Part shown: in pieces, positions 27,737-44,465 of the stretch
Numbering within the stretch: position 1 is the stretch's first letter
Layout of the letters: each line of letters opens with the position of its first letter
From: a virus
Taxonomy: Duplodnaviria; Heunggongvirae; Uroviricota; Caudoviricetes
IMG/VR virus record: IMGVR_UViG_3300045597_000172
Length of the DNA stretch: 64,000 bases
Direction: 5' to 3' (one strand)
Position numbers and translations under genes: made by a program
The notes under the pieces: model-generated
Database searches by the model: none
The model's input: only the letters and a program-made list of their open reading frames with translations
Told to the model about the DNA's origin: nothing

Positions 27737-28012
27737 ATCTCAGTACGAGGCGCAAAGATTGACGCTAAAAACAAAGAAATTTGTTATATCTGATAACCGA
27801 TTGTGAATTGGTTCAACACCAATACAGAAGTTGGAGCTTAGAATCGGTTAACTTATAAAGTTTGAATCCTTATCGTACTATTTCATGCGTGCATTAACTT
27901 GCCAACCATAATTGGTTGCCGTCGCATAGAACTGCACCGACGTCAGTACAGCGTCGTAAAATAAATTAAGCAACACTCCTACAAGGAAATATTGTGCAGG
28001 TATTTCCATAAT

Positions 28013-28084
28013 TGTCCAATAGTTCAGTGGTAGAATATCTGACTGTTAATCAGAGGGTCGTAGGTTCGAATCCTACTTGGACAG
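28013..28084 (+). tRNA. tRNA-Asn (anticodon GTT)
   Basis: Acceptor tgtccaa/ttggaca. D-arm gttc-agtggta-gaat. Anticodon arm tctga-ctGTTaa-tcaga. T-arm gtagg-ttcgaat-cctac. Confidence 0.75.
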
Positions 28085-28303
28085 TAGATGCTACTAAACA
28101 AAGGCATTGCGCTAATTGCGAAAACCAAATAACATTGTTTACTAACGGTGTAACTAAGCTGGGCTAAATGCATCAAAACGATGCATAAATTATGAGATAT
28201 AAATTAAACGCTGGATTGCAACCAGTTGCTCATAATACCAATATTAAAAATGGTACCATTCTTAATATTAGTAGTTAGGTTCGATTCCTAAACGCTGTTA
28301 TTT

Positions 28304-28369
28304 CGTGATTGTAGCTCAAGACAAGAGTCATCGTTGTGACGAGATATTGGTGCAAATCCAATCAATCAC
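28304..28369 (+). ncRNA. degenerate tRNA-like element (66 nt) with T-loop UGCAAAU
   Basis: Acceptor gtgattg/caatcac (7/7). D-arm-like gctc-aagacaa-gagt. T-arm attgg-tgcaaat-ccaat. Anticodon arm truncated. Confidence 0.3.
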
Positions 28370-28405
28370 ATCATAAAATTCAAAATTGGAAAGGAAGATG
28401 TAAAA

Positions 28406-28669
28406 ATGGAATACCGAGTACCCGTTGCATATGGCTCATACGGAATTGTAAAAGTTAATGCTAAAAACAAGCAAGAACTAATCGAAAAATTATCATCTCA
28501 AGAGTTTATTGCTGAAATGCCATTACCTGACAATCCTGAATATCTCGATGACTCATTCGAAATCGATGTAGATGGTTTAGAATTTGAAGAACAACACGAC
28601 AAAAACGGAAACGCTGTCACCCTAGCATTATCTCATAACGAAATTAAAAAAATAAGAAATCCAGAATAA
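28406..28669 (+). CDS. hypothetical protein
   Basis: RBS ggaaaggaagatgtaaaa-ATG. 87 aa. Confidence 0.4.
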   Translation: MEYRVPVAYGSYGIVKVNAKNKQELIEKLSSQEFIAEMPLPDNPEYLDDSFEIDVDGLEFEEQHDKNGNAVTLALSHNEIKKIRNPE

Positions 28670-29138
28670 AACATTGTCCGCAACGACAATCAGCATTCAT
28701 TAAACTACGTGGTGGAGATGGCGTAGAGTAAAACTCACGTCCAAGAAAAAATACAACATGCTTACATAATGTTGTTGTAAAACAGATATTAAACAAAAAA
28801 TAAATTCAAAGGATGTGATGATCGTGCATAGAAGCCGTTTGCTTCACCGTCCGCGCGACGTTATGATTGAAAATATCAATTCATAAAAAAACAATGCTGC
28901 ATATACTATAAAACATAATTGGTGCGTGGGAAGTTGAAATACTTCTATATCGTTAGTTGCTAAAACCGGCTAATGACGAATTAGAATAGGCAAGTTCCGT
29001 TAAATGTACGCCAACCTAGATCTATGTACGTAAAAGCATAATTGATCGCATAGGAAAGACAGCCAATTTAACTTAAAAAGTCAGCACTAGACAAAAAGCC
29101 GTATCGAAGAACGCGTAATGACGTAATCATTACAAAAG

Positions 29139-29166
29139 TTGACAACCAAAGCCAACATGCTAACAT
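29139..29166 (+). promoter_or_regulatory. candidate sigma-A-type promoter upstream of tRNA-Asn (TTGACA-N16-TAACAT)
   Basis: -35 box ttgaca at 29139-29144, 16-nt spacer, -10 box taacat at 29161-29166. tRNA starts at 29184. Confidence 0.3.
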
Positions 29167-29183
29167 AACGTGTGTTAGTTCAT

Positions 29184-29255
29184 TGCTCAGTAGTTCAGTG
29201 GTAGAATAATTGACTGTTAATCAAGAGGTCGTAGGTTCGAATCCTACCTGAGCAG
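29184..29255 (+). tRNA. tRNA-Asn (anticodon GTT), third copy
   Basis: Acceptor tgctcag/ctgagca. D-arm gttc-agtggta-gaat. Anticodon arm attga-ctGTTaa-tcaag (A-G at the stem base). T-arm gtagg-ttcgaat-cctac. Confidence 0.7.
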
Positions 29256-29533
29256 TTTAAAAAACTATGGAAAGCAAACCATTTAAACTCGGTTATTGAT
29301 TACTGTAGGTCAACAATTTTGTACTATATGCATCAAAGACCCACCGTGCAAAATCCAGCACAAACGAGTCTGAGACATCATTTATTCCATTGATATGTTA
29401 GTCCAACTGACAATTCCGGAAACGGACTAAAATCCGTTGTAGATTAGAATCGTTATTGGATGAGATTACGAAACCGGTCCAATGAATAATGTATCAAGAT
29501 GGTAACAAGGAATAAATACATCAAACAGACGGT

Positions 29534-29605
29534 ACATCTGTAAGCTTACTGGTGAACTATTGGTCTCCAAAACCAAAATTGTTGGTTCGAATCCAACCAG
29601 ATGTA
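29534..29605 (+). tRNA. tRNA-Trp (anticodon CCA)
   Basis: Acceptor acatctg/cagatgt. Anticodon arm ttggt-ctCCAaa-accaa. T-arm gttgg-ttcgaat-ccaac. D-arm imperfect but same architecture as the second Trp gene at 44559. Confidence 0.6.
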
Positions 29606-29766
29606 TAAATCAAATGGTTATATCAATCGTTTGATTCTAGTACCAAAGTCAGCAATAGACTATAACAGCCGTAAAAATAGACGCATACTAACGTAATTAC
29701 TGTATAAAAATCAAACGAAGCATAGTAATTTGATGTGTTATTAAGGTGTAGGATAACATTTATTTC

Positions 29767-30092
29767 GGGCTTGTTTTGGATTCGACAGGGCATTAACGCT
29801 TTAATCTCGTCAACCAGTTAAATATAACTGCAAAAGAAAACACTTTAGTTGCTGCCTAGTTTAACCACTAAATAGCAACACCTCAACCCACTGGCAAAGC
29901 CGTGATAACCAGTGGTTTCAAACACGGATAAGTTAATTATGTTCCATTAACATAATTAATCGAAAACTAAAATGGTTAATGAATGTTTGTCATTAGCAAA
30001 ACTCATTATAAAAAAAATAATTAATGACTATGACGTAAGAATGATTACGGTAAGTGATGTCTTGGACGCGGGTTCGATCCCCGCCAAGTCCA
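29767..30092 (+). ncRNA. ssrA: tmRNA (SsrA), about 326 nt, predicted tag (A)AKENTLVAA
   Basis: 5' end GGGCUUGUUUUGGAUUCGACAGGG (tmRNA hallmark GGAUUCGACAGGG). 3' tRNA-like domain gcggg-ttcgatc-cccgc plus acceptor caagtcc pairing with 5' gggcttg, including a G3-U70 wobble (Ala identity element). Conserved UUAAAUAUAACU precedes resume codon GCA at 29830. Frame GCA AAA GAA AAC ACT TTA GTT GCT GCC TAG ends at 29859. Confidence 0.7.
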
Positions 30093-30284
30093 TAAATCAA
30101 AAAAAAATCGTCAAAAATATCTTGACCAAACTTATATGTTAACATATAAGAGTAGTAGGACCGCATACGCGGGATCCTGAGTACAACTTAGTCTAAAGAT
30201 ACCAAGTTGGAATCAAGCAGAGTCAGCTGCTAAGTCAGACAATTTGAACTACTAATTTTACGATATTTATTAATATCGTATTTC

Positions 30285-30363
30285 GGACTCGAAATCAACA
30301 ACCCTAGGAACGTTGATTCCATGAATAGCTGTTAGCCAGATGGTTTGAATCCATCCGAGTCCA
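30285..30363 (+). ncRNA. degenerate tRNA-like element (79 nt)
   Basis: Acceptor ggactcg/cgagtcc (7/7). T-arm gatgg-tttgaat-ccatc. Middle has a tcaac/gttga hairpin with a 12-nt loop but no anticodon arm. Confidence 0.3.
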
Positions 30364-30394
30364 TTGCACCAAATAAAATAAGAAAGCTGGAAAT

Positions 30395-30955
30395 ATGATG
30401 ACCGATAACATTAAAAAGATTCCACAAATTCCATTGTTACACGATATTCCCTTCAATCAAGAAGACAAAGATCTAATCGTTCAACTATCATTACAAGGTG
30501 TAATTGCATCACTCCACAATGACCCAAAATACGGTTTGTTTTTATCAATCAAGAAACCTATTCGCGGCATGTTGTCAGTACAAATTCTCATCGAAAAAGC
30601 AACTCATGGAAATCTCAAAAAAAGTATTCTTGATAGTTGCAAAAATGCACCTGAACAATTATCAAAAATGCGAGATGTGAAATATTTGGATAGTTTAATT
30701 AATAACATCGAAAACTTCCATTTCATTCGCAAATATGACGAACCTTATTTTAAAGAAAACATTCAGCCATTACTAAACAATCACGCTGAGACAGAAAAAA
30801 TAGATAATAAAATTAATCAATACGAATCTGACACTGGCAAAAAAATTGATCTTACCAAACCTGATTTTCAAAAACGTTTAAACGAAATCCGAAAGATACA
30901 ACGACGAAAAATTCATTTTCAATGTAATCTTATTCGCATTGCTAACAGTATCTAA
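30395..30955 (+). CDS. hypothetical protein
   Basis: RBS aagaaagctggaaat-ATG. 186 aa. Confidence 0.45.
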   Translation: MMTDNIKKIPQIPLLHDIPFNQEDKDLIVQLSLQGVIASLHNDPKYGLFLSIKKPIRGMLSVQILIEKATHGNLKKSILDSCKNAPEQLSKMRDVKYLDSLINNIENFHFIRKYDEPYFKENIQPLLNNHAETEKIDNKINQYESDTGKKIDLTKPDFQKRLNEIRKIQRRKIHFQCNLIRIANSI

Positions 30956-30986
30956 AATTAATCACGGTAATCTATTACCGTGTTAC

Positions 30987-31059
30987 GCAGTTTTAGCTCA
31001 GTAGGTAGAGCATCTGTCTTGTAAACAGAAGGTCACAAGTTCGAGCCTTGTAAACTGCA
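30987..31059 (+). tRNA. tRNA-Thr (anticodon TGT)
   Basis: Acceptor gcagttt/aaactgc. D-arm gctc-agtaggta-gagc. Anticodon arm tctgt-ctTGTaa-acaga. T-arm acaag-ttcgagc-cttgt. Confidence 0.75.
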
Positions 31060-31140
31060 TTGCGGTTAATCCGCAATCTAATTGTTTTCTTCAATAGTAA
31101 ATTATTCCTTTTCCGATATGGTAAATCCATATCGTTTTAT

Positions 31141-31227
31141 GGACAGTTGGCCGAGTCTGGTTTATGACGCTGGCTTTGAACACCAGTTGTGAGCAATCAC
31201 ACACAGGTTCGAATCCTGTACTGTCCG
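31141..31227 (+). tRNA. tRNA-Ser (anticodon TGA), class II
   Basis: Acceptor ggacagt/actgtcc. Anticodon arm ctggc-ttTGAac-accag. Long variable arm with tgtga/tcaca stem. T-arm acagg-ttcgaat-cctgt. Confidence 0.6.
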
Positions 31228-31242
31228 TCCAAATATCTTAAA

Positions 31243-31290
31243 TAGACCTACTCTAATTGAGTGGGCCTATTTTTTACGAAAGCGAAGCGA
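31243..31290 (+). terminator. rho-independent terminator closing the tRNA island
   Basis: atagacctactc-taatt-gagtgggcctat followed by ttttt. Confidence 0.55.
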
Positions 31291-31357
31291 TATCAATGTA
31301 AAAAAAAGTCAAGATCTACTTCAGAAAAAAAATAAAAAAATCGAGGAGTTATTACAC

Positions 31358-32812
31358 ATGTCAACATCTTTAATTATCACTGGAGTAATTGCATTTTTAA
31401 TTGTCATTTTAGCCGTAATAATTATTACAGCATACAAGAAAGTCGCACCTAACGAAGTTCTAATAGTCACTGGTGGTTTTTTAGCTGGACCCTATGTTCA
31501 AACAAATCCACAAACACACACCAAAGTTAAAGTTGTGACCGGCGGTGGTACCTTTGTCATCCCCATCGTGCAACAATCACACATCTATTCACTTGACACG
31601 TTTAACATCGATGTCAACGTAAATGAAATTATGACTAAAGATGCAATTCCAGTTGACGCCGCAGCAAACGCCGTATTACGACCTGCTTCTGAACCACAAT
31701 TACTAGCAGTTGCTGCACAAAAAATCTTTGGCTTAACTGAAGAAGAACGCCGTACTCAAATGGAACAAGTTGTCTTAGGCGGTGTTCGTGAAGTCCTTGC
31801 CGGACTAACACCAATGGAAGCTAATAATCGTTCAAACTTTGCTCACGAAATTGTTACTTCAATTAAACCAACATTCGACAATCTGGGACTGGAAATTACC
31901 GCACTTCAAATCACTAAACTAAGTGATACACATGGCTATTTCGAATCCGTATCTAAACCAAAGATTGTTGATGCCGTATCAGTCGCACGTCAACGTACTG
32001 CTGAAGCTGACAAACAAGCAACATTAGTCGAAGCCGCTAACAATCTTGAAGCTCAACAAGGTAAACTTGATGCTGAGAAAAAGATTGCATTAAGTGAAAA
32101 AGACGTCAAAATTGCTAAAGCACAATACCAAAAAGAAATTAACATCAATGATGAAATGGCCGCTCAAGCTGGTGTCATTACCAAAACAGAACAAGATGCC
32201 ATCATCAAAGAAAAACAAATTGCTGTAAACGAAAACGAATTGAAAGCAACTAAAATTGCACAACAAAAAGCAGAATCAGAAGCAAAAACAATTCAAGCAA
32301 ATAATGATGCTGCCATTATCAAAATTAACGCAAATGCTAACGCAGCAGCAATCAAAACTCAAGCTGAAGCCGAATCAGATAAAATTAATAAAATTGGGGT
32401 TGCCAACGCAGCTGCCAGTGCCGCTAAAATTCGTGAAACTGGTAAAGCTCAAGCCGAAGCACAAGAAAAAATTGCAAATGCGTTATCTAAACATGGCGAA
32501 AATGCAATTATCATGGAAATCATTAAGCAATTACCAATCATCAGTCAAGCTTATGCCGAATCAATCTCCAATATTGATAACTTAACTGTCTTTGATGGTG
32601 CAAAAGGCGTTACAAATCAGCTAGATGCCCAAATGATTCAATCAAGTGAACTTATCAAGAAAGCTACCGGTTTTGATCTTTTTGATTATCTTGGCAAACG
32701 AGGAAACGGTAAATCAGACGTTAACCTAAACCTTAACGATAACAGTAAAGAAGCTCTGACCGAAATAACAAAATCAAACAAATCCGAAACAAATACTAGT
32801 TCAAATAAATAA
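31358..32812 (+). CDS. flotillin-like SPFH/band-7 domain membrane protein (FloT/YuaG-like)
   Basis: N-terminal TM helix IITGVIAFLIVILAVIIITAY. SPFH-like core. About 250-aa Ala/Glu/Lys/Gln-rich coiled-coil with EA-type repeats (AEAESDKINKIGVANAAASAAKIRETGKAQAEAQEKIA) typical of flotillins. Confidence 0.6.
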   Translation: MSTSLIITGVIAFLIVILAVIIITAYKKVAPNEVLIVTGGFLAGPYVQTNPQTHTKVKVVTGGGTFVIPIVQQSHIYSLDTFNIDVNVNEIMTKDAIPVDAAANAVLRPASEPQLLAVAAQKIFGLTEEERRTQMEQVVLGGVREVLAGLTPMEANNRSNFAHEIVTSIKPTFDNLGLEITALQITKLSDTHGYFESVSKPKIVDAVSVARQRTAEADKQATLVEAANNLEAQQGKLDAEKKIALSEKDVKIAKAQYQKEININDEMAAQAGVITKTEQDAIIKEKQIAVNENELKATKIAQQKAESEAKTIQANNDAAIIKINANANAAAIKTQAEAESDKINKIGVANAAASAAKIRETGKAQAEAQEKIANALSKHGENAIIMEIIKQLPIISQAYAESISNIDNLTVFDGAKGVTNQLDAQMIQSSELIKKATGFDLFDYLGKRGNGKSDVNLNLNDNSKEALTEITKSNKSETNTSSNK

Positions 32813-32821
32813 TCAAACAAA

Positions 32822-32852
32822 AAACCTGAACTTATGTTCGGGTTTTATTTTA
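32822..32852 (+). terminator. rho-independent terminator
   Basis: aacctgaac-ttat-gttcgggtt followed by ttatttt. Confidence 0.55.
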
Positions 32853-33062
32853 CTATAACGAATACAAAAAAATATTTAAAAAATTATTAAAAATCGAGTA
32901 TACCAATATATAATTTTATTATATAATAAAAAGTGTGACAATGCTATTATCCAAGATTCCCACGAAAAAAGGAGTGATGCAAAATGAAAAACTTAAATTA
33001 TTACATTAAAAAAACAAAACGAACTAAAAATCGTTTTAACAAAGACAAAGGACGGATCATTA

Positions 33063-36000
33063 ATGAATAAAAAAATAATAGCGAAAAAAGTTTCAATTAC
33101 TATTCTAATTACAATCCTTGGATTAACAAACATGTCAGATGTTTTTTTATTAAAAAATAACATTATACACGCAGATCCTACCAATTGGACACAAACTGCA
33201 AACAACGTTAACGCAACAAACAAAAATCTTATAGACAATGCTGTAACAAATTCAAAAAAGACAGAAAATACAAATTTAATTCAGGATCAAACGCAAACAA
33301 TCGATGCAACATCCTCGAATTTAAATGACATTGAAAATCAAGTCAAAAATAGCAACAACAACATGATATCGGAAATAAACAGCGATACCGAAAAACAAAA
33401 AGCTATTAACGAAAAAAATGAACAAATTGAAAAAGACAACAATTCAAAAAAACAATCATATGAAGCAGCATTAACAAATTATAATAACGAATTAGCTGCA
33501 TATAAAAAAAATCTACAAGATCAAGGATTAAATGATGGTATTGATCCTTCCACATTCAATCAACAACTCCAATTTACTCAAGATGACAGAAACAATACAG
33601 AACCAAAAGTGAGTGTTCAATTGTTATCAGGTGCAGTTAATTACAAAAAATTAATAAGTAATGGATACGGAACTAGTAATTTTCCATGGTCAAATTCACA
33701 TGAAGCTGAACAGATATATGCAAAGAATTCAAACGCTAAATCTATTAACGGTGATTTTGCAAAAATCACATGGGATGGTGTATATGGATATTCATATAAT
33801 GGTATACAAATTAAAAAAATTGTAGAAACATTCAGTGACTGGAAATTAGCTGCTACTAAACATGTAAGTGGCCCTCGTGGAATAACCGTGTATCAAAATC
33901 CAAATGAAAATTTTTGGTATTTAAACGGATCCGACACGACAACAAACTATCAATTTTACGATGAAAACGGGAATTTAATAAATTTCGAACCAAATAACGC
34001 ATACGTCGCGGTAGGTAGTTTGGACAGAGCATATTACGCATACGATTTTGGAAGTCACACATACAACACCAATATCGTAGCCAACCAAATCGAAGAAGTT
34101 CAATTATTGTCAGCCGGAACCGGAATACAATTAACAAACAGTACTATTAGCAATCACGATGGCAACAATATGTTTTCTGATAAAGATAATGTACAAATCC
34201 AATATCAAAATGGTGGATTAACAGAATATGGTGCATTTAACGTTACAGGTGGAAATATTAAACTACATTACCACACAAATATGACAAACGAAGCACCAAA
34301 CGCATCAACATTAACTTCATTTGCAACTATATTTCCATTAAGCTCTGCGCCAAAGAAACCAACAAGTCCAACATACACACCAACAGATCCGACAGTGACA
34401 GATATTCATTATCATTACACAAACATAAATTTAAAATTAACAGTCACAACAAATTATCTTCAAAACAATGATTCAAAAAAACAAGAAGATGGCTCAAAAT
34501 TAGCTGACTCTACAACACAATCCGGAGATAGTAACTCAAACTATTCAACTAGTAAAAAAGATTTCACTGGTTGGCATCTAACTTCTACGCCAACAAATGC
34601 ATCCGGAACATTAACAAATTATGACGTGACAGTTAACTATATTTACGACCGTGATCCCGAAACTGTAAAAGTAAAATACGTAGATGAAGAAACCGGAAAT
34701 GATATTAGCAATCCAACAACATTAAATGGATATTACGGATTATCATATACATCATCTCCGAAATCAATTACTGGTTGGACCTTATCTAAAACACCAAATA
34801 ATACATCTGGAACATATTCAAAGAGTAATGCCGATATCATCTATCAATACAAGAGAAATACCGAAACAGTAACCGCAAATTATCTTGCCAATAATGATAT
34901 TAATAAAAATGAATTTGGACAAAAATTAGCGGATTCAGTAACACAAAAAGGTGGTTTCGGAACAAACTACACAACATCTGCAAAAGATATTTTAGGATGG
35001 CATTTACTTGGAATTCCAACCAATCAAAATGGAACCTACCAAGAAAGTAACCCCGACGTCAACTACATTTACGATCGTGATCCTGAAACGGTAACCGTAA
35101 AATATGTAGACACTAAAGGAAACACGTTAGCAAAAAGCAATACCTTAATTGGATACTACGGATTGGATTATCAAACATATCCTGCAAGTATTGATAACTA
35201 CCACCTAACTGCAATTCCTACAAATGCAACCGGTAAATATTCAAATGGTCCAATTACCGTAACTTACATTTATGACGTTGATCCCGACATCAAAGAAGGA
35301 CTTTCTAACGATGCAATAAACAGTAAAAATTACGATACTGCAATTTCTAACACATCACAAAACGTACAATACAATAATGTTTACCACTATGTTGATAAAA
35401 TCACAGTCGGTGGATCCATGAACCTTACCGATCTAAAAATCCAAACAAATCTACCAAGTGATGTTAATCCAATCGTTAACGGTGGCGACATCAATAATCA
35501 AAACATTAAAGTTTATGTTCGTGAAGATGATGGTTCATTAACAAATGTTACAAGTCAAGGAACACTTGCGTATCAAGTAAACAACAAAGATGTAACTAGC
35601 GATAATAACAAAAATGTCGCAATTGATACTGATAAAACAAGAACTCTGACATGGACACCAAAAACACCATCTGCATTCACTGGAAAACAAATCATTACTG
35701 ATATTCCAGTAAATCTTCAACCAGATGCTGCAAAACTAAAAAGTTATAAATCTGACAACGGTATTAATATCAAACACACCACTCAATTAATTGAATCAAA
35801 TGATTTACCAAGTTCTGGTGAAATAAAAACTGATACCACATCACAAAAAACGTATACCAGCAACAATACAACAATTCAATTACCAAACATCTATACGTTA
35901 AAATTTTACAAATCAGAATTTCAAACCAACGATACAATTAATGGAAAAGTTTGGTTGAAACTATATCCAAACCTTGTCGGACAAGAAGATACAGGTAATA

Positions 36001-37334
36001 AAAAACTAGCAACACTAACAGTTAACGGTACAACTCAAGATGTACAAAGCAGTTTATCAACTAGCAACAAAGAAATTTTAACAAACGTAAATAGTTCAAA
36101 AACTGCTAATAATTCAGATCCAACATTTGATATTAACCTAAAAAGTAATCAAACAAACAGCAGTCAAAATCCAGTTGTTTTAACAAAGAGTCTTATTAAA
36201 GATCAAAGTAACAACAACTCCATTTCAAAAACAACTTACGTTTCAAACGATGATCTTTACACTAGCAAAAACACTGCTGCTCAATACAAAAAAGAAAACA
36301 CCTCAAGTACTGTTGGATCCGCACCTGAAGAAGTTGAAACTTATTACGACCAAGATTTAACAAATCCACAAACAGAAACGACTAACGAAACCTCTCCTAC
36401 TTACGTCAAACTCATGGAATACATGAACGCAAACTATAGTAAGACGGTTAGTGCAAAAGCTGGTTATGGTATTAAAAATGATTTGATTTTAAACTACTAT
36501 GGCCGTCATTTAACAAATCAGTCAACTTCTGATACTGATTTTGAAAAAAATAATCTTGCAACGATCTTTAGTACGGATACGGATTTAACCACTGCCAACG
36601 GAAAAACTTCAAGTCAAATTAACGATAATCAACATGAATTACTTGATTATAATGCCGAAGTCAATTCCGTTAACGACTTAATCAACAATGTCAACAATCT
36701 AACTACGAATGCACAAAAGACAAATTATCTTCAATCGAAACTCGGTACAAACGCCGGAAATTCATTTGTCTATAATCTAGCCGGAAAAGAAAACACACTT
36801 GATCAAGCCGTATCAGACATCAACAAGTCAACTGCCTATGTTAACCTTGATGATAAGACAAAATCATTCATCAATACCGTTGACACCGACACAAATTCAA
36901 AACCGATTGCGCCAAAACTATATAGTATGAATTACCGTTTCAACAAACGACTATTATCATACGAAAATAGTAACAGTAACGGTGTTGAATATTATGACCG
37001 AAACAGTTCACATGTAGCTCAAAACGATGACCAACTAATGAATAAAACCGATCCAATCAGTAGCACAACTGATGGCGGATACAAATTTTATACCAACCAA
37101 TGGTTAAAAATTGGAACATATCCGACACACTACACAAGTAACGAATTTGGAACTAACAATTTCAAATTAAAAGCTGATCGCGATCTAAACATTTATGGCC
37201 GACGTTATCTAACACGTTCTGATACTAAAAATGATGGAGATAAATATGATGACCTATCAATTCAACCTGTCATTTCGAAAAATAGTAACGGAACCGGAAC
37301 TACTATGCCTGACGGTGAATGGAGTAATAAATAA
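33063..37334 (+). CDS. large secreted adhesin-like protein with four MucBP-like repeats (1423 aa); possible phage receptor-binding/adhesion protein or host-surface adhesin
   Basis: Signal peptide MNKKIIAKKVSITILITILGLTNMSDVFLL. Four alternating repeats of about 70 aa between roughly nt 34380 and 35290: TV(K/T)VKYVD..GN.L.......GYYGL.Y and ...NY.T......GWHL...PTN..GT......V.YIYDRDPE. Asn/Thr/Ser-rich. No LPXTG at the C-terminus. Confidence 0.65.
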   Translation: MNKKIIAKKVSITILITILGLTNMSDVFLLKNNIIHADPTNWTQTANNVNATNKNLIDNAVTNSKKTENTNLIQDQTQTIDATSSNLNDIENQVKNSNNNMISEINSDTEKQKAINEKNEQIEKDNNSKKQSYEAALTNYNNELAAYKKNLQDQGLNDGIDPSTFNQQLQFTQDDRNNTEPKVSVQLLSGAVNYKKLISNGYGTSNFPWSNSHEAEQIYAKNSNAKSINGDFAKITWDGVYGYSYNGIQIKKIVETFSDWKLAATKHVSGPRGITVYQNPNENFWYLNGSDTTTNYQFYDENGNLINFEPNNAYVAVGSLDRAYYAYDFGSHTYNTNIVANQIEEVQLLSAGTGIQLTNSTISNHDGNNMFSDKDNVQIQYQNGGLTEYGAFNVTGGNIKLHYHTNMTNEAPNASTLTSFATIFPLSSAPKKPTSPTYTPTDPTVTDIHYHYTNINLKLTVTTNYLQNNDSKKQEDGSKLADSTTQSGDSNSNYSTSKKDFTGWHLTSTPTNASGTLTNYDVTVNYIYDRDPETVKVKYVDEETGNDISNPTTLNGYYGLSYTSSPKSITGWTLSKTPNNTSGTYSKSNADIIYQYKRNTETVTANYLANNDINKNEFGQKLADSVTQKGGFGTNYTTSAKDILGWHLLGIPTNQNGTYQESNPDVNYIYDRDPETVTVKYVDTKGNTLAKSNTLIGYYGLDYQTYPASIDNYHLTAIPTNATGKYSNGPITVTYIYDVDPDIKEGLSNDAINSKNYDTAISNTSQNVQYNNVYHYVDKITVGGSMNLTDLKIQTNLPSDVNPIVNGGDINNQNIKVYVREDDGSLTNVTSQGTLAYQVNNKDVTSDNNKNVAIDTDKTRTLTWTPKTPSAFTGKQIITDIPVNLQPDAAKLKSYKSDNGINIKHTTQLIESNDLPSSGEIKTDTTSQKTYTSNNTTIQLPNIYTLKFYKSEFQTNDTINGKVWLKLYPNLVGQEDTGNKKLATLTVNGTTQDVQSSLSTSNKEILTNVNSSKTANNSDPTFDINLKSNQTNSSQNPVVLTKSLIKDQSNNNSISKTTYVSNDDLYTSKNTAAQYKKENTSSTVGSAPEEVETYYDQDLTNPQTETTNETSPTYVKLMEYMNANYSKTVSAKAGYGIKNDLILNYYGRHLTNQSTSDTDFEKNNLATIFSTDTDLTTANGKTSSQINDNQHELLDYNAEVNSVNDLINNVNNLTTNAQKTNYLQSKLGTNAGNSFVYNLAGKENTLDQAVSDINKSTAYVNLDDKTKSFINTVDTDTNSKPIAPKLYSMNYRFNKRLLSYENSNSNGVEYYDRNSSHVAQNDDQLMNKTDPISSTTDGGYKFYTNQWLKIGTYPTHYTSNEFGTNNFKLKADRDLNIYGRRYLTRSDTKNDGDKYDDLSIQPVISKNSNGTGTTMPDGEWSNK

Positions 37335-37340
37335 CACAAA

Positions 37341-37370
37341 AAACCCGCATTTAACGATGCGGGTTTTTTT
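37341..37370 (+). terminator. rho-independent terminator
   Basis: cccgcat-ttaacg-atgcggg followed by ttttttt. Confidence 0.7.
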
Positions 37371-37515
37371 ATAACTATATAAAAAAAATATGCACAATTT
37401 AATCAAATACCATTGCATTTGTGAAATTTATAAGATAAAATAAAGTTCGTAAGTAATGTGTGCACACACCATATCGTTACATACATCATTCCAAAATAAA
37501 GGAAGTGTTTCAAAT

Positions 37516-37698
37516 ATGCCAGAAGCAATGGGTAATATCTCTTGGTCGACATACGCATTAGTAATTGCTGCCGTTATCTTAGGAGTTGTGCTAATTTCGT
37601 TCCCAGAAATTACAAAATCAATCATGTCATTCTTACAGACAATGATCACTACCGCGGGCGGTAAAATTACCGACACGTTAGCAAAATCAGCATCATAA
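37516..37698 (+). CDS. small hydrophobic protein (60 aa); candidate Flp-type major pilin
   Basis: RBS aaaggaagtgtttcaaat-ATG. MPEAMG-NISWSTYALVIAAVILGVVLI resembles the Flp G/xxxxEYxLIAALIAV pattern with TY in place of EY. Has its own downstream hairpin and T-tract. Precedes a Tad-like operon. Confidence 0.4.
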   Translation: MPEAMGNISWSTYALVIAAVILGVVLISFPEITKSIMSFLQTMITTAGGKITDTLAKSAS

Positions 37699-37797
37699 TA
37701 GCAATAATACAAGTCGATAACGCCGGGAAGATTGAAAAATCGACCCGGTTTTCTTTTTAAAATAAGTAGTAACTCTACAATGTAAGGATGTGAATAC

Positions 37798-38244
37798 ATG
37801 CTATCCGGAAAACTTTATACACTAGGTTTAGTTATGTTTTCAGTCTTTTGCAGTCTTCTAATTGCAATCTATTCAATCATGGAATTCACACAACAAAGAC
37901 TCCAAGGTTCACTTCAAACCGTTACCGAAGAAGCTATCTATGACGCACGGTACGATAACGCACGAAGCACTAATAAAGTTTTTGTACTAGATAAAACAGT
38001 CTTTGAACAAGACCTGATCCATAGCAATATCAAAAGTATTTCCAACGATTCAAGTTTAAAATTAGAATACATGCACGATGATAGTACCGCGGCAAAATCA
38101 CTAAACTTAACAGATTCCCGCATCCCTATCAAAGCAGTTAGAGTAACCGTAGTTGATGGAACAAACGATCACTTAAACAAAACAATTACTTACATCATCA
38201 ACTCAAATTCAAAAACTAAAGACGATGACTTATCAAATAACTAA
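37798..38244 (+). CDS. N-terminally membrane-anchored protein (148 aa); candidate TadE/F-like pseudopilin
   Basis: N-terminal TM helix LYTLGLVMFSVFCSLLIAIYSIM followed by a soluble domain. First gene of the operon containing the secretion ATPase. Confidence 0.35.
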   Translation: MLSGKLYTLGLVMFSVFCSLLIAIYSIMEFTQQRLQGSLQTVTEEAIYDARYDNARSTNKVFVLDKTVFEQDLIHSNIKSISNDSSLKLEYMHDDSTAAKSLNLTDSRIPIKAVRVTVVDGTNDHLNKTITYIINSNSKTKDDDLSNN

Positions 38245-38260
38245 TAAAAAAGGTGAACTT

Positions 38261-39691
38261 ATGGAAAATACAGAAAAAACAAACACTCCAATTACCAAAA
38301 CAGAAAATACCGCAACAAAATTTCACCCCTTTCACGACGACGGTGAAACTGATAAAATCTACAAAATCATCAGTGAACTTTTTGCAGACGAACTAACTGA
38401 AGCACTCTTACCAAAAGGCGATACAAAAAAGATTGTTGAAATTCTACAAACTCGAAAAGAATTTGAAGACTGCACAACTCACGACAATCCGCAACGGGCA
38501 CGTGAGATTGCAACTGATATTGCTGGTTTAGGTGTAATTGAAACTATCATTAAAAAATACAATCATGAAAATATCCAAGATATTGGTTACAACAGTAATC
38601 ACATTTTGACCATTGATACAGCCGAACATAAATTCGTATATACCGAAAAAAACTTTGATCCGCATATCAATACGCAATACATGTTAGGTTTGATTAATCG
38701 GTTAGCGCAGCATGAAGCCCCTTCCGGAAAACAATTCGTAGCTGACTCTCCGATTTATAATGGATCTGCTCATATTGGTGACGGTGACGACCGTATTTAT
38801 CTCCGTATTTCAGCAACACATACAAGTCTCGCACCAACTGGACCAACATTAAGTATACGTGTCTCAAAATCGCACCTAGCATTGACTAAAGAGAACTTCA
38901 ATAACATTGCACCCATGATGATCTACAATCTGTTACACGTCTTTATCGCGGCACACACGAGTATTGTGATTTCTGCCGAAACTGGAGCCGGAAAAACAGA
39001 ACTTCAAAAACTGTTACTTGGATTTGTACCATTTGATGAACGAATTGTTTTAATTGAAGATACAAACGAAATGCATTTGACCACCCTTTATCCAAAAAAA
39101 GATATTTTTTCATGGGTAAGTGATCCGTTACTAACTATAAATCATAAACCTGTTAACACCACTACATTAATCGAACAATCACTTCGTACAAACCCAAAAT
39201 GGTTAATCGTTGCAGAATCTCGTGGTGATGAAGCATACGAATTAATCAGTGGTGCTAGATCAGGTCACCCAATCATCACAACGCTACATGCTACATCAAA
39301 CGCAGCAGTACCCGGACGATTAATTGGGATGTCAGCAATGGGCTACAAATTCAACGAAGAAATGTTAGACCGTGATATTTTAAACTATATCAATATCGGA
39401 ATTCATTTAAACTTAAAATCCAATTATCATGGTCGAAAATTACGGTACATTGACCAAATCGTTGAATACGTACCACGCTCCGAAAAATACCCAGATGGAA
39501 TCAATATACTATTTCAACAACACATCGACAAAAATGGTTACCGCACATACTGGATAAACGAAGCCACTGACAAACTAAAAGATCATATTTACCGTGAACT
39601 TGATGAAAAGCTGAAATATCCAACAATTCAAAAAGACTCACCAAAAAAAGAAAAACTCTTTGAATTCAAGTCTGAAACGGGTGAACAATAA
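38261..39691 (+). CDS. VirB11/CpaF/TadA-family secretion (type IV pilus/T4SS-type) ATPase
   Basis: Walker A ISAETGAGKTELQKL. Asp box RIVLIEDTNEMH. Walker B/Glu box WLIVAESRGDEAYEL. His box SGHPIITTLHATS. ATG at 38261 preferred over track start 38225 because of the aaaaaggtgaactt RBS. Confidence 0.7.
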   Translation: MENTEKTNTPITKTENTATKFHPFHDDGETDKIYKIISELFADELTEALLPKGDTKKIVEILQTRKEFEDCTTHDNPQRAREIATDIAGLGVIETIIKKYNHENIQDIGYNSNHILTIDTAEHKFVYTEKNFDPHINTQYMLGLINRLAQHEAPSGKQFVADSPIYNGSAHIGDGDDRIYLRISATHTSLAPTGPTLSIRVSKSHLALTKENFNNIAPMMIYNLLHVFIAAHTSIVISAETGAGKTELQKLLLGFVPFDERIVLIEDTNEMHLTTLYPKKDIFSWVSDPLLTINHKPVNTTTLIEQSLRTNPKWLIVAESRGDEAYELISGARSGHPIITTLHATSNAAVPGRLIGMSAMGYKFNEEMLDRDILNYINIGIHLNLKSNYHGRKLRYIDQIVEYVPRSEKYPDGINILFQQHIDKNGYRTYWINEATDKLKDHIYRELDEKLKYPTIQKDSPKKEKLFEFKSETGEQ

Positions 39692-40515
39692 TGGCAAAAA
39701 ACAAAAAGATTAAAACTCGAAAAAAAAGATACACCATCAAAGACCTTGATGCGATGGAAGAACTTTACGGTTCACATTTTACAAAAACCACACTTGCACG
39801 AAATTTTCTAACGTACAGTATTGCATCAATTGCTTTCTCCTACGTCCTATATGCAAGTATTCCAATCGTCATCATTTACGTAATACTAAGTTGCCTGTAC
39901 GTTTACTACAACATTATTCCAAACAATGTACGGATGAATTATGAAATGAAAGCTCATGCCGAACGAAATCGTAGTATTAATATCGTAACCCAAAGTTTAT
40001 CGTCTGGACATACATCAATTAAAAACGCCATCAGCATGGCAATTAAAAACTCTAACGGTGAATTTCGCAAAGATCTTAAATTACTATATGCCAAGATCTT
40101 GAGTGATACCACATTCGAAGCAACTCATGACGCATTTACAAAACTAAAAACTAAATATCCTGACGATATCTACTTTGGACTATTCCTAGAACAACTTGAA
40201 GTTGGACTTAACAAATCTCATCCAGATCTAAGAACCCTCATGATCGTGAGAAAATCACACAATTACGAATACAATCGAATTAAAGTCTTTCGTTCCGCAA
40301 AAAGACAAGCGATGCGTGACATGATTAAAATGTTAAGCTTAACATTCGTCGTTTGCTGTACCGTTGCATTTATGTTTGGATATCAAAAGTTTTTAACTAT
40401 GTACGCTCATAACTTAGTCGGAATGGCAATTTCAACATTATTCATGTTCGTACTATTCATGATTATCAAAAAATTCATGAAAATGTATCAAGACACTGCC
40501 ATTAATTCGATCTAA
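39691..40515 (+). CDS. TadB/TadC-like (GspF-family) inner-membrane platform protein
   Basis: 274 aa. TM helices near the N-terminus (IASIAFSYVLYASIPIVIIYVILSCLYVYY) and C-terminus (LSLTFVVCCTVAFMFGY, VGMAISTLFMFVLFMII) with a cytoplasmic domain between. Translationally coupled (ATAATGG) to the ATPase. Confidence 0.5.
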   Translation: MAKNKKIKTRKKRYTIKDLDAMEELYGSHFTKTTLARNFLTYSIASIAFSYVLYASIPIVIIYVILSCLYVYYNIIPNNVRMNYEMKAHAERNRSINIVTQSLSSGHTSIKNAISMAIKNSNGEFRKDLKLLYAKILSDTTFEATHDAFTKLKTKYPDDIYFGLFLEQLEVGLNKSHPDLRTLMIVRKSHNYEYNRIKVFRSAKRQAMRDMIKMLSLTFVVCCTVAFMFGYQKFLTMYAHNLVGMAISTLFMFVLFMIIKKFMKMYQDTAINSI

Positions 40516-40532
40516 GAAAGGAGCACACTTAA

Positions 40533-41387
40533 ATGTTTAACAAACAAAAATCAAAAAACACTACTGAAAAAAAGAGAACAACCAACGTTACCGCGGAAGA
40601 CTTTGATGTTCAAACCATGCGATTAAATCTTGTTCGTGAAGAATTAACATTTCCAGCCAGTTTAATTGGTGATGGCGAACTAAGACTCATGCTCAAAATG
40701 GATACTAAAACACGAGTAATCAAAGGTATCATGGGTAACAGATTCCGTGTCGCAATCGCGGCCGTACTATTTGGACTAATTTTTGGAATGATTTCCAAGA
40801 AGTATTTTATTTTAATGTTGTTCCTAGGAATTTTGATAGCTGCCGTTTCGTGGAATGATAGTATTAAAAAAACAAAAAAATACTACCAAATCTATTCGAT
40901 AAATCGTCAAGTTGCATTTACTGAATTTACTAAAATTGCCGGCGCACTTCTTCCTGAATTAGATAACGGAAAAAACCTCCTATCAATCTTTGAAGAAGTC
41001 AGCAAACATATGGACAATGAAAACGATCGTAAAGCATTGAAACAGTTAATGACACACATGCAGAGTAATAACGAAAGCAGTCAGCCATTTCTTGATTTCG
41101 CCCATCAATTTTCCACCAGTGACCGTGCAGAACTAACCATGCTATACATGCACCAAATGTACCTTGGAAACACGGATACAAGCGGAATCCAATCACTGAT
41201 CAACGATTCAAACGAAGATTACCAAGCACAAACTGAAAAAATAATTACGACCAAAATAAAAAGATTTTACAGCACCGCTACAAAGATCGCAATGAGTGTT
41301 TCAATCGTCGTTTTCGGATATTTCGGCATTTACATTGTCAACATGTTCCAGCACATCTTTAAAATCATGTCCAACGTTAAATTCTAA
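40533..41387 (+). CDS. second TadB/TadC-like membrane platform protein
   Basis: 284 aa with the same TM/cytoplasmic/TM architecture (VAIAAVLFGLIFGMI, ILMLFLGILIAAVSW, IAMSVSIVVFGYFGIYIV). RBS gaaaggagcacactta-ATG. Confidence 0.5.
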   Translation: MFNKQKSKNTTEKKRTTNVTAEDFDVQTMRLNLVREELTFPASLIGDGELRLMLKMDTKTRVIKGIMGNRFRVAIAAVLFGLIFGMISKKYFILMLFLGILIAAVSWNDSIKKTKKYYQIYSINRQVAFTEFTKIAGALLPELDNGKNLLSIFEEVSKHMDNENDRKALKQLMTHMQSNNESSQPFLDFAHQFSTSDRAELTMLYMHQMYLGNTDTSGIQSLINDSNEDYQAQTEKIITTKIKRFYSTATKIAMSVSIVVFGYFGIYIVNMFQHIFKIMSNVKF

Positions 41388-41407
41388 AATAACCGAGGTG
41401 AATAATT

Positions 41408-41776
41408 ATGGACGACGTCAGTATTGGACAACTCATGCATTACCTAACGCTTGGATTATGGATTAGCCTCATTCTATTCATTCTTTGTTATCCAATGTAT
41501 TCAGTTGCACAATTAGTATCATTTCAACAATCATCAGCAACAATTCTATCACGATACGGTGGCGTAACCGCCGATGCCAAAAAAACAGTTAATACCATTG
41601 GGGAAACATATTACAGTAATAAATTCAGTATCGTAGATACCCCAAGCGACAAAACAAGCAATTACGGAGGAAACATTCCATACACAATTCATGTAAGAAT
41701 CCCCGTAATCAGTAACTTAGTCGAAACAAATATCCAAGCCAACACTGAATCAGACGTACGTAACGAAAACAATTAA
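41408..41776 (+). CDS. N-terminally anchored small protein (122 aa); pseudopilin-like, paralog of 41962..42336
   Basis: N-terminal TM helix LTLGLWISLILFILCYPMY. Shares a C-terminal motif Y-[TI]-I-x-V-[RH]-IP-[VL]-I with the 41962 product. Confidence 0.4.
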   Translation: MDDVSIGQLMHYLTLGLWISLILFILCYPMYSVAQLVSFQQSSATILSRYGGVTADAKKTVNTIGETYYSNKFSIVDTPSDKTSNYGGNIPYTIHVRIPVISNLVETNIQANTESDVRNENN

Positions 41777-41796
41777 AAAAAGAAAGATGTGATCAT

Positions 41797-41946
41797 ATGA
41801 AACGCGGTTTTTCAGAATTAGTATTCACAGTTCCCGGAGCGGCATTTATCGCAATGATAATCATTATAATCGCGGCATTTATTTCTCCCAATATGCTTCA
41901 AACAATGTGGTTACTTCTCGTGAATAACAATGGAATCACATTCTAA
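41797..41946 (+). CDS. 49-aa prepilin-like mini-protein (class III signal-like KRGF/SE motif)
   Basis: Not in the ORF track. MKRGFSELVFTVPGAAFIAMIIIIIAAFISPNML. The K-R-G-F-S-E pattern resembles the (K/R)G-F-T-L-[IV]-E prepilin peptidase site, followed by a hydrophobic helix. Confidence 0.4.
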   Translation: MKRGFSELVFTVPGAAFIAMIIIIIAAFISPNMLQTMWLLLVNNNGITF

Positions 41947-41961
41947 GGCGGTGATTAAATA

Positions 41962-42336
41962 ATGGCCCATTTTCCATTTGAAGAACTAATTCGTTGGTTA
42001 TTCATGAGTCTATGTATTGCGTTTTTTATAAATATTTGTGCAATCAGTTTTAACGTAATGCAAATCAATAACTACGAAAAAAATATCGACAATTACATTG
42101 AGAACAACGGAAAACTAGACAGTGCATATATTAACAACAATATTTCACCCAAATTCAACAATTATTTTACCGTAAAGCCCAAATCTACAAACGATGAACA
42201 ACCTCACGACTTTGGTAAAAGTGTTGATTACATCATAACTGTTCATATCCCGCTCATTGCATTTGCAAGCAAAAATGAATCACTTGGAATCAACACCACA
42301 TATTCTGGTTTCAGTACTTCAAAAATTTCAAACTAA
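41962..42336 (+). CDS. N-terminally anchored small protein (124 aa); pseudopilin-like paralog
   Basis: N-terminal TM helix LIRWLFMSLCIAFFINICAISF. C-terminal YIITVHIPLIAF motif shared with 41408. Confidence 0.4.
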   Translation: MAHFPFEELIRWLFMSLCIAFFINICAISFNVMQINNYEKNIDNYIENNGKLDSAYINNNISPKFNNYFTVKPKSTNDEQPHDFGKSVDYIITVHIPLIAFASKNESLGINTTYSGFSTSKISN

Positions 42337-42337
42337 A

Positions 42338-42359
42338 AGACACCTCGGTGTCTTTTTTA
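42338..42359 (+). terminator. rho-independent terminator
   Basis: agacac-ctcg-gtgtct followed by tttttt. Confidence 0.65.
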
Positions 42360-42400
42360 TTAACCCTTAAAATATAACGACCCGTTTATATTCCAAATAA

Positions 42401-42422
42401 AAGCGCCAAAGGCGCTTTTTTT
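42401..42422 (+). terminator. rho-independent terminator, GGCGCC-stem family variant
   Basis: aagcgcc-aaa-ggcgctt followed by ttttttt. Confidence 0.6.
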
Positions 42423-42460
42423 ATAAAACGTTCGTACAAAAAATCAAAGGAAGCGATAAT

Positions 42461-42652
42461 TTGAAAAACGTGTACATCCTAACAAATCATGAAACTGTAA
42501 AAAATTACGTTAAATCATTCAATCCACAAAATGGTTATATGAAATTCACAACAGAAAAACAACTCGCTGCAAAGGTGCAACCCCAAAATGCCCTTAAAAT
42601 CAAGGCAATGTTAGATCATAACAAATTGCATGCCACAATCGCACCTGCATAA
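42461..42652 (+). CDS. hypothetical protein (TTG start)
   Basis: aaggaag RBS. 63 aa. Confidence 0.3.
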   Translation: MKNVYILTNHETVKNYVKSFNPQNGYMKFTTEKQLAAKVQPQNALKIKAMLDHNKLHATIAPA

Positions 42653-42667
42653 AAAGGACTTGACTAT

Positions 42668-43027
42668 ATGAAATCAAAAATAAATCTTATAATTTCAGAA
42701 ACACCTGTTAACGATAAACGTTTCCCAAATTCAAGCATTATTGACACCAATTTCGTAGACAATCTTCACGACAACATTAGAATCTACCGTGTAAATAATA
42801 CCTTTACAGACGATGGTTATTTCAATGATGAATTATCCACCACTACACTTTCTAAATCTGAGCAATCGAAAATCATTGATCTTGCAACATCCCTATTTGG
42901 ATGTGAATTCAATGGAACCGAAATAACATGTACCACAACTGATTATGACAATGGACTCGCAAGAATCATTCAATGCTGTACTACTATCACTGCATTAACA
43001 ACATACACACTCGCAAAGGAGAATTAA
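42668..43027 (+). CDS. hypothetical protein
   Basis: ORF of 119 aa with several Cys. Confidence 0.35.
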   Translation: MKSKINLIISETPVNDKRFPNSSIIDTNFVDNLHDNIRIYRVNNTFTDDGYFNDELSTTTLSKSEQSKIIDLATSLFGCEFNGTEITCTTTDYDNGLARIIQCCTTITALTTYTLAKEN

Positions 43028-43030
43028 AAA

Positions 43031-43640: not shown

Positions 43641-43641
43641 T

Positions 43642-43887: not shown

Positions 43888-43906
43888 CAAACGAAAGGAC
43901 TATACA

Positions 43907-44260: not shown

Positions 44261-44271
44261 GAAAAAACGTC

Positions 44272-44321
44272 TACCGAGTATTCTCTTGGATATTATTTCG
44301 GTTCGAATCCGAACTCGGTAA
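44272..44321 (+). ncRNA. mini tRNA-like element (50 nt: acceptor-like stem plus canonical T-arm)
   Basis: taccgag...ctcggta 7-bp stem. T-arm ttcgg-ttcgaat-ccgaa. Only 18 nt in between. Confidence 0.3.
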
Positions 44322-44459: not shown

Positions 44460-44465
44460 TTTTCT

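Follow-up and report, generated by a model that had tools for sequence, protein, structure and literature searches.

The subject of this work is an adhesin gene carried by a stretch of DNA of 64,000 nucleotides (hereafter the window) from the IMG/VR virus record IMGVR_UViG_3300045597_000172, together with the module of genes which follows it on the same strand. An initial annotation, made from the sequence alone, had described the product as an adhesin-like, exported protein with four alternating MucBP repeats, a signal peptide, an asparagine- and threonine-rich composition and no sortase motif, encoded next to a pilus-like block, and each of these descriptions is borne out below. The protein, 1423 amino acids (aa) long, is composed of an apparent Sec signal peptide, a predicted lectin-like head of the antigen I/II (AgI/II) and GbpC type, a stalk of MucBP domains, a conserved middle region and a C-terminal tail homologous to that of TIEpLS20, an adhesin of the plasmid pLS20. 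The genes downstream of it match pLS20 genes 36-40 gene by gene (BLASTP and phmmer, four plasmids) and include a CpaF-like ATPase. All coordinates are collected in Table 1.

Domains of the adhesin

Since full-length homologues with 85%, 62%, 48% and 47% identity are present in other metagenomes, the gene can be taken as real and conserved. The profiles used below were built on a five-member adhesin family (A1), and P0001 designates a protein identical to the target; scans of IMG/VR and GTDB with the target protein itself gave zero relatives. Asparagine (13.4%) and threonine (12.2%) are abundant and cysteine is absent. At the N-terminus, hydrophobic residues (aa 10-30) come after a basic stretch, as is typical of a Sec signal peptide, the call being a reading of the sequence letters rather than the output of a dedicated predictor. 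At the C-terminus neither an LPXTG motif nor a transmembrane sorting signal was found, and the sole similar motif is an internal LPSSG at aa 915.

The last 106 aa of the tail are 30% identical to the extreme C-terminus of the pLS20-family TIE protein (BLASTP, E=2e-8), and the tail matches four plasmid adhesins with E-values between 3e-8 and 2e-3, including those of Paraclostridium, Enterococcus faecalis and a pXO2-like plasmid of Bacillus cereus. A profile-profile comparison (hhalign) gives a probability of 97.5% and E=7.8e-12 over 77 columns. The conserved blocks of the target tail lie at aa ~1131-1146 (K-AGYG) and aa ~1333-1412 (DGG-KFYT-W...G-N...IY...D-I-P); the motifs common to the target and TIE tails are DGG-KFYT-W-G-Y...Y-S...G-N and a terminal PDG-WS, and a second conserved block (Y-E-M...K-GYG...Y) is found further upstream in both tail families. 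The class of the target tail was assigned via homology and the Pfam family PF27438 (PXO2_28_C) via the precomputed labels of homologues, the Pfam copy scanned being older than PF27438; this label is listed for P0002 (62% identical overall), P0007, P0008 and P0009.

When the C-terminal 683 aa were searched exhaustively (HMMER) against 1.8 billion representative proteins, only eight were returned, namely four full-length relatives, P0009 (with an unrelated head and the last ~300 aa in common) and three small proteins sharing the last ~100 aa. The database relatives obtained with tail-profile searches, only 10-11 per search and close relatives of one seed, all carry the precomputed PF27438 label. 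By tblastn, the TIE tail is present in 371 records of plasmids (Bacillus 283, Listeria 45, Enterococcus 31), 238 being typed as conjugative, in proteins labelled "thioester domain-containing", "fusion protein (includes pXO2-28-29-30)" or "SpaA isopeptide-forming pilin-related". Those relatives of the tail which could be identified are all plasmid-borne surface adhesins. Among members of the adhesin family, conservation is much lower in the head than in the tail and the middle region, and P0007 and P0009 combine the same tail with other heads. As the tail is kept while the heads differ, it can be viewed as a conserved module placed under interchangeable heads and stalks, which is the pattern expected for a docking end as opposed to a binding end. 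The tail profile gave no match in a PDB sequence search, and Pfam likewise indicated no known wall-binding module.

For the head, the assignments of Adhesin_P1_N and GbpC to the target rest on homologues and on the family profile. Residues 57-408 are 30% identical to the AgI/II-family protein P0004 (BLASTP, E=5e-32), which contains the domains Adhesin_P1_N, AgI_II_C2 and Antigen_C. Against the PDB, the A1 family profile matches the AgI/II A3VP1 structure 3IOX (E=6.9e-14) and the SpaP V-region 1JMM (E=2.4e-10), as well as 6E36, GbpC 5UQZ and 6TZL. Adhesin_P1_N is above the Pfam cutoff (27.1 bits) in the homologues P0002 (34.5 bits), P0005 (30.2 bits) and P0006 (30.6 bits), and GbpC (PF08363) is precomputed on P0002. 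Based on these comparisons, the predicted head is a lectin-like domain of the V-region/GbpC type atop a short helical segment. In the Pfam scan of the target, AgI_II_C2, Antigen_C and Gram_pos_anchor were absent, Strep_SA_rep appeared only below threshold, and neither TED nor TED_2 was found, which the plasmid adhesins do carry. PrgB has a polymer adhesin domain of the same class, through which it binds lipoteichoic acid on recipients (PMC12857230, a 2025 review); since PrgB structures are missing among the PDB matches of the A1 profile, the head seems closer to streptococcal AgI/II and GbpC.

Between head and tail, Pfam matches MucBP (PF06458) in four stretches (158.6 bits, E=6.5e-47, with a cutoff of 23 bits), at about aa 456-530, 531-601, 602-673 and 674-742, and the solved MucBP-type domains 2KT7 and 7YL4 are also matched. 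The A-B-A-B alternation is real, because the first and third repeats (56% identity) and the second and fourth (42%) are more alike than the cross pairs (32-39%). These repeats account for about 20% of the adhesin length and are the stalk only; the informative parts of the protein are the regions which flank them. With the middle region (aa 743-1105), Pfam and PDB sequence searches returned nothing significant, and AlphaFold predicts, within the C-terminal 683 aa, a beta-sandwich of moderate confidence for aa ~773-885 only.

A CpaF-like module shared with plasmids

The related plasmids were traced by tblastn of the ATPase, which led to the pLS20 family, where a thioester-domain adhesin occupies the position equivalent to that of the target. 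The order adhesin, small open reading frames (ORFs), ATPase, two membrane proteins of ~240-285 aa and a protein of ~120 aa is the same in all eight loci compared (the target, L003, L005, L006, L011, L012, L027 and L028, which include pLS20-family, pXO2-like, Enterococcus and Paraclostridium plasmids), so that the linkage between the adhesin and the adjacent block, which the initial annotation had suggested from position, is supported. Additionally, the gene sizes and the transmembrane layouts of the module agree with the published pLS20 gene table (PMC8557374). In the plasmids, VirD4 is encoded at most a few kb after the module, and next comes a transmembrane protein of the pLS20_p028 family, some plasmids having a VirB2-like protein before these.

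The ATPase shares 33-42% identity with its plasmid orthologues. Its family profile matches CpaF in the PDB with E=2e-38 (135 bits) and VirB11 with E=1.4e-26 (96 bits); the best NCBIfam model is TIGR03819 (TadA family conjugal transfer-associated ATPase), below the equivalog cutoff, and the label given by the Joint Genome Institute is "pilus assembly protein CpaF". In sequence, then, it resembles CpaF, the motor of Tad pili, more than VirB11, although in the pLS20 literature gene 37 is VirB11 and Gram-positive elements are described as making no conjugative pili (PMC8557374). A search of IMG/VR with the ATPase alone gave zero relatives. With the profile, one T2SSE-family relative of 22% identity was observed in a 420-kb record (L013, IMGVR_UViG_3300044557_000292, positions 9566-11176), whose surroundings are not obviously like the module, and among the matches listed for GTDB only distant relatives appear. 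An ATPase of "Listeria phage LM 4-14-1" with 40% identity was rejected as evidence of phage origin, the record being an UNVERIFIED_ORG contig and probably plasmid carry-over.

The small membrane protein encoded directly downstream of the adhesin gene matches a 50-aa protein of the E. faecalis plasmid locus (L011) with E=1.5e-7 in BLASTP and E=3.2e-8 in phmmer. Its size and layout are similar to those of Flp pilins, without the prepilin motif G/XXXXEY. A 123-aa ORF on the minus strand (37428-37799) overlaps it, and gene callers disagree here (minus in L001, plus in L002); given the homology to the 50-aa plasmid proteins, the plus-strand reading is favoured. The plasmid proteins of 47-51 aa (MLDQNTDR-WW-IGAV-VGA-LIG..., in L005, L006, L011 and L012) are also of Flp-pilin-like size. 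The homologue of gene 40 is duplicated in the window and single in the plasmids examined, while pLS20 and Paraclostridium duplicate the 47-aa protein instead. As for the 274- and 284-aa proteins, their size, order and transmembrane layout are compatible with TadB/TadC, and profile searches gave them zero T2SSF match in Pfam and zero match in the PDB. We found no paper in which these pLS20-family genes are treated as a module resembling type IV filaments. A gene for a CPBP/Rce1-like intramembrane protease lies ~16 kb 3' of the window end (L007, 13252-14094), and another just 5' of the adhesin gene of the E. faecalis plasmid (L011, 1674-2120), which may be coincidence.

Table 1. Coordinates of the adhesin gene, its parts and the surrounding features, in window positions
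Feature	Position	Strand	Remarks
Surface-exclusion protein, PrgA/Sec10 type	19086..22463	+	1125 aa, LPXTG anchor; NCBIfam TIGR04320, 91.1 bits (cutoff 70)
Terminator-like hairpin	32821..32846	+	3' of the upstream SPFH gene
Promoter-like site, TTAAAA-16-TATAAT	32887..32914	+	5' of the adhesin gene; consensus scan, 10/12 matches
Adhesin gene	33063..37334	+	Stop included; ATG start, 1423-aa product
Probable signal peptide, aa 1-37	33063..33173	+	MNKKIIAKK and hydrophobic core; read from sequence; cleavage after IHA is a guess
Helical segment, like the AgI/II N-terminus/A-region, aa ~45-160	33195..33542	+	Adhesin_P1_N in homologues
Predicted lectin-like head, AgI/II V-region/GbpC (polymer adhesin domain) type, aa ~165-410	33555..34292	+
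Stalk of four MucBP domains, A-B-A-B, aa 456-742	34428..35288	+
Family-specific middle region, aa 743-1105	35289..36377	+	Highly conserved in A1
C-terminal tail module, TIEpLS20/pXO2-28 (PXO2_28_C type), aa ~1106-1423	36378..37331	+	BLASTP, hhalign
Strong hairpin and T-run	37338..37369	+	Directly 3' of the adhesin stop; terminator-like on both strands
Small membrane protein (ORF)	37456..37698	+	~50-80 aa; likely start Met 37516 or 37528; homologous to 47-51-aa plasmid-module proteins
148-aa protein, N-terminal transmembrane segment, pLS20 gene 36 homologue	37798..38244	+	BLASTP E=1.2e-6 (L011), 9e-5 (L012)
488-aa CpaF/TadA-like secretion ATPase, pLS20 gene 37 ("VirB11") homologue	38225..39691	+	Pfam T2SSE
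274-aa polytopic membrane protein, pLS20 gene 38 homologue	39691..40515	+	E=3e-33 to 8e-25, four plasmids
284-aa polytopic membrane protein, pLS20 gene 39 homologue	40533..41387	+	E=1e-22 to 1e-16
122-aa protein, N-terminal transmembrane segment, pLS20 gene 40 homologue, copy 1	41408..41776	+	E=1e-9 to 1e-4
49-aa hydrophobic protein	41797..41946	+	Module membership inferred from position only
124-aa protein, N-terminal transmembrane segment, pLS20 gene 40 homologue, copy 2	41962..42336	+	E=7e-7 to 7e-3

Surroundings of the locus and nature of the element

The promoter-like site 5' of the adhesin gene is weak evidence, because such sites are no commoner here than in shuffled sequence. Directly upstream (31358-32812, plus strand) lies a gene for a 484-aa SPFH/Band-7 membrane protein, which is probably outside the module, since the corresponding place in the related element L003 does not have it. 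A PrgA/Sec10-type surface-exclusion protein is encoded 10.6 kb 5' of the adhesin, functionally related to it and not adjacent, and its counterpart in L003 is 74% identical and has the same relative position. The SEC10/PrgA surface-exclusion domain is a hallmark of enterococcal-type conjugative plasmids.

The element as a whole is at least 237 kb long, is known only from metagenomes and has nearly all of its genes on one strand. It contains 18 tRNA genes and a transfer-messenger RNA (tmRNA; 29767-30092, tag AKENTLVAA*), located at 22540-31231 and 44385-44632 of the window (plus strand) and therefore flanking the adhesin locus; eight tRNAs are found in the corresponding places of L003. The tRNA called at 22540-22611 has an odd anticodon of two bases. 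On the plus strand, positions 824-8007 encode a ParM/actin-like protein (phrog_691, "partition protein") followed by a MoxR-type AAA ATPase, a VWA protein and a ClpA/B-like double-AAA protein, and positions 8040-12234 encode a UvrD/PcrA-like helicase of 1015 aa, extended N-terminally by ~400 aa, and then a non-specific DNA/RNA endonuclease (Endonuclease_NS). Downstream of the module (46772-60509, plus strand) are genes for an SNF2 helicase, an RNase H1 with an N-terminal hybrid-binding domain, a uracil-DNA glycosylase, an RtcB RNA ligase and MgsA/RarA. An RtcB gene next to tRNA arrays may point to tRNA repair, by analogy with some large phages.

Additionally, the flanks of the window contain T4 gp30.3-like, NinI-like phosphatase, NUDIX and DHH genes, and the gene profile of the element resembles that of huge phages. 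Phage G likewise has 18 tRNAs and a tmRNA, plus unexplained TraC/TraD-like genes (PMC12484599). Scans with PHROGs, Pfam and NCBIfam of ~60 ORFs from the window and its flanks (~84 kb in all) gave no match to genes for a capsid, portal, terminase or tail, nor to any for a relaxase, VirB4, VirD4 or a Rep protein. A megablast search of positions 30000-45000 gave no phage match, and the only plasmid match was a 58-bp stretch of tRNA-Thr in Apilactobacillus kunkeei plasmids, which is uninformative; tblastn searches of phages with a 795-aa protein and the UvrD-like protein were also uninformative for the element type. Judged from its genes alone, the element may be a phage, a megaplasmid or a hybrid, and the premise of the initial annotation that the adhesin is carried in a phage is unproven.

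Possible function and relation to known systems

Based on the domain composition, the tail homology and the synteny, it is probable that the protein is a Sec-exported modular surface adhesin of the TIEpLS20/pXO2-28-30 class, which attaches the carrier cell to other Gram-positive cells. Donor cells need TIEpLS20, the product of pLS20 gene 34, to conjugate efficiently in liquid. Its signal peptide is followed by a class II thioester head and a CnaB-type stalk; it lacks LPXTG, a lipobox and any known wall-binding module and is sortase-independent, and the authors of the 2021 study left open how it is retained on the surface, suggesting a C-terminal region of ~250 aa as responsible (PMC8092201). 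In the mechanism proposed here, the AgI/II/GbpC-type head would face outward and bind a ligand on the partner cell, being presented by the four MucBP domains and by ~360 aa of family-specific, putatively beta-rich sequence, while the tail would replace the LPXTG anchor and dock to a wall-spanning structure or platform on the producer cell. This structure would be built by the CpaF-like ATPase, the two polytopic membrane proteins and the small proteins with N-terminal transmembrane segments (the homologues of pLS20 genes 36-41), ultimately leaving the carrier cell attached to other Gram-positive cells. Docking of the tail to a product of the module is suggested by the fact that the two co-occur whatever the head or the genus, even where no type IV secretion system (T4SS) is contiguous. 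Cell attachment is a likely function by analogy with TIEpLS20 and PrgB, and adhesion to host surfaces is plausible, either instead of this or in addition to it. A tip adhesin of a filament, as the initial annotation proposed, would be a conjecture, since only the ATPase of the module is demonstrably Tad/CpaF-like.

Several observations weigh against the overall reading. Within the ~84 kb examined, the target gene does not belong to an operon containing T4SS genes for conjugation: queries with VirD4, the VirB2-like protein and the proteins encoded beside them had no tblastn match in the window, in its flanks of 10 kb on either side (L007, L009), in L003 and in L027/L028, where the ATPase, used as a control in the same searches, matched every locus searched, and no VirB4-type domain was found in window ORFs of at least 400 aa. 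Since no T4SS gene is detectable in the window, flanks and related loci, a role in conjugation is unproven here. The resemblance to Tad systems is also partial, because hhalign comparisons of the 274- and 284-aa proteins with TadB/C of Rhizobium and Thioclava gave probabilities below 5%, similar to those of a reversed-sequence null (with shallow profiles of 5 and 2-4 sequences), the small proteins have no G/XXXXEY prepilin motif (MLDQNTDR-WW-IGAV... in the plasmids, ...MGNISWSTYALVIAAV... in the window), and no peptidase_A24 or other prepilin peptidase was matched among the scanned ORFs. The "Tad-like" label of the initial annotation therefore holds for the ATPase, and otherwise rests on gene order and membrane topology, as these searches brought out no further Tad feature.

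In the adhesin itself, Adhesin_P1_N is below threshold (15.2 bits, with the cutoff at 27.1), the Pfam scan gave zero GbpC (PF08363) match, and PF27438 is unlisted for the identical protein P0001. AlphaFold2 models of the C-terminal 683 aa (7-sequence alignment) and of the last 324 aa (14 sequences) have mean predicted local distance difference test (pLDDT) values of 37.5 and 35.3, respectively, and are thus unreliable, so that they provide no structural argument for docking. Finally, with a terminator-like hairpin on either side, the adhesin gene may be expressed independently of the downstream module.

That apparent transcriptional independence is one of the reasons for considering the protein as cargo for host colonisation, which would bind mucus, glycans or salivary-type glycoproteins on an animal or plant surface and have no relation to the ATPase module. 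Adhesion of Lactobacillales to their hosts is a classic role of MucBP and AgI/II domains, and the lack of a nearby T4SS is in line with this view. Nevertheless, we consider it unlikely, given that the conserved tail is common to plasmid conjugation adhesins and that the adjacency to the ATPase module holds in 8/8 loci, in distant taxa and under different heads. The two roles, furthermore, are not exclusive, since PrgB performs both (PMC8092201). If, on the other hand, the tail bound the wall itself non-covalently, the module could have no part in display and its ATPase could be a VirB11-like component of a machine for DNA transfer whose genes lie in another part of the element. The published view of gene 37 and of Gram-positive conjugation (PMC8557374) favours this possibility, as do the missing TadB/C signal in the membrane proteins and the missing canonical prepilin motif; the higher score of the ATPase with CpaF than with VirB11 (135 and 96 bits) speaks against it, the persistence of the module without a contiguous T4SS is hard to explain if it serves a T4SS only, and no known wall-binding module was matched in Pfam or the PDB, all of which makes it improbable.

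The initial annotation had also put forward a virion protein, either receptor-binding or tethering the phage to mucus in the manner of the bacteriophage adherence to mucus (BAM) model. Some virions do carry Ig-like and lectin-like domains as decorations, and the element has traits of huge phages (18 tRNAs and a tmRNA, gene order on one strand, T4 gp30.3-like and NinI-like genes), but a Sec-type signal peptide would export the protein from the cytoplasm, where virions are assembled. There is zero PHROGs match and zero IMG/VR relative, the C-terminal half is unmatched by tblastn in 50,697 phage records, no gene for a capsid, portal, terminase or tail was seen in the ~84 kb, and the identifiable tail relatives are all surface adhesins of plasmids. 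We therefore regard this proposal as very improbable.

Returning to the surface adhesin of the TIEpLS20 class, its carriage by such an element allows a more speculative scenario, to which we would give only a small chance of being correct as a whole: the element, as a huge phage or a hybrid of phage and plasmid with a length of at least 237 kb, would have captured only the partner-finding and partner-holding half of a Gram-positive conjugation system, composed of an exclusion protein of the PrgA type, an adhesin joining a TIE tail to a PrgB-class head, and a display machine driven by CpaF and resembling a (pseudo)pilus. Without a T4SS, this kit would benefit the element by sticking infected or carrier cells to uninfected hosts for spread, or by excluding competitors, and the tail and the CpaF module would be the mechanism which holds LPXTG-less adhesins such as TIEpLS20 on the surface.

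The tail class and the head class were already known; what is new is the combination of a TIE-type tail with a PrgB-class head and a MucBP stalk. Of the conjugation adhesins of Gram-positive bacteria considered here, PrgB and TIE are the two that have been studied experimentally and, as the target joins the head class of one to the tail class of the other, heads and tails appear to be exchanged as modules. The TIE-type tail travels with the CpaF-like module, under any head, across plasmids of Bacillus, Listeria, Enterococcus and Paraclostridium and in this element, which makes the pair a testable candidate for how LPXTG-less conjugation adhesins are held on the cell surface. A "VirB11" which is closer to CpaF also questions the textbook statement that Gram-positive conjugation operates without pilus-related machinery, and, if the speculative scenario above is correct, some Gram-positive conjugation systems would build a structure related to type IV filaments. 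A plasmid-type attachment-and-exclusion kit is thus found, with no T4SS nearby, in a huge tRNA-rich element; should the element be a huge phage, such a conjugation-type kit in a virus would represent a new kind of manipulation of the host surface by phages.

Among known systems, the closest are TIEpLS20 and its relatives (the pXO2-28-29-30 or pAW63-type "fusion protein" and the adhesins of Listeria and Enterococcus), which, like the target, have a signal peptide, a head, a stalk and a conserved C-terminal module without LPXTG, and whose genes have the same position, directly 5' of small ORFs, a CpaF/VirB11-family ATPase, two membrane proteins and a ~120-aa protein. The protein of the B. cereus pXO2-like plasmid (1426 aa) is even of similar size. 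The differences reside in the head and stalk (thioester and CnaB/SpaA-like in that class, AgI/II/GbpC-type and MucBP in the target), in an extra conserved middle region of ~360 aa and a ~100-aa helical insert within the tail of the target, and in the genomic context, where no T4SS genes follow the module and the element is tRNA-rich and at least 237 kb long, rather than a plasmid of 50-100 kb. Because it has no TED or TED_2 domain and its head is AgI/II/GbpC-like, the target is better described as a TIE-tail adhesin than as a strict thioester ("TIE") protein.

PrgB, the aggregation substance of pCF10 from Enterococcus, has a head of the same GbpC/antigen I/II polymer adhesin class, and both pCF10 and the present element encode a PrgA/Sec10-type surface-exclusion protein; however, PrgB is anchored by LPXTG and sortase and has neither a MucBP stalk nor a PXO2_28_C tail. 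The streptococcal antigen I/II proteins (SpaP, SspB) and GbpC share with the target the succession of an N-terminal segment and a lectin-like V-domain, whereas the target has no proline-rich P-region, no C1-C3 isopeptide domains and no LPXTG, and its A-region is a single short segment. Finally, the module differs from the Tad/Flp pilus systems (CpaF/TadA, TadB, TadC, Flp and TadE/F) in having no detectable T2SSF similarity, G/XXXXEY motif, prepilin peptidase or demonstrated filament; it has in common with these systems an ATPase most similar to CpaF, followed by two polytopic membrane proteins of TadB/C-like size and topology, and around them several small proteins with an N-terminal transmembrane segment.

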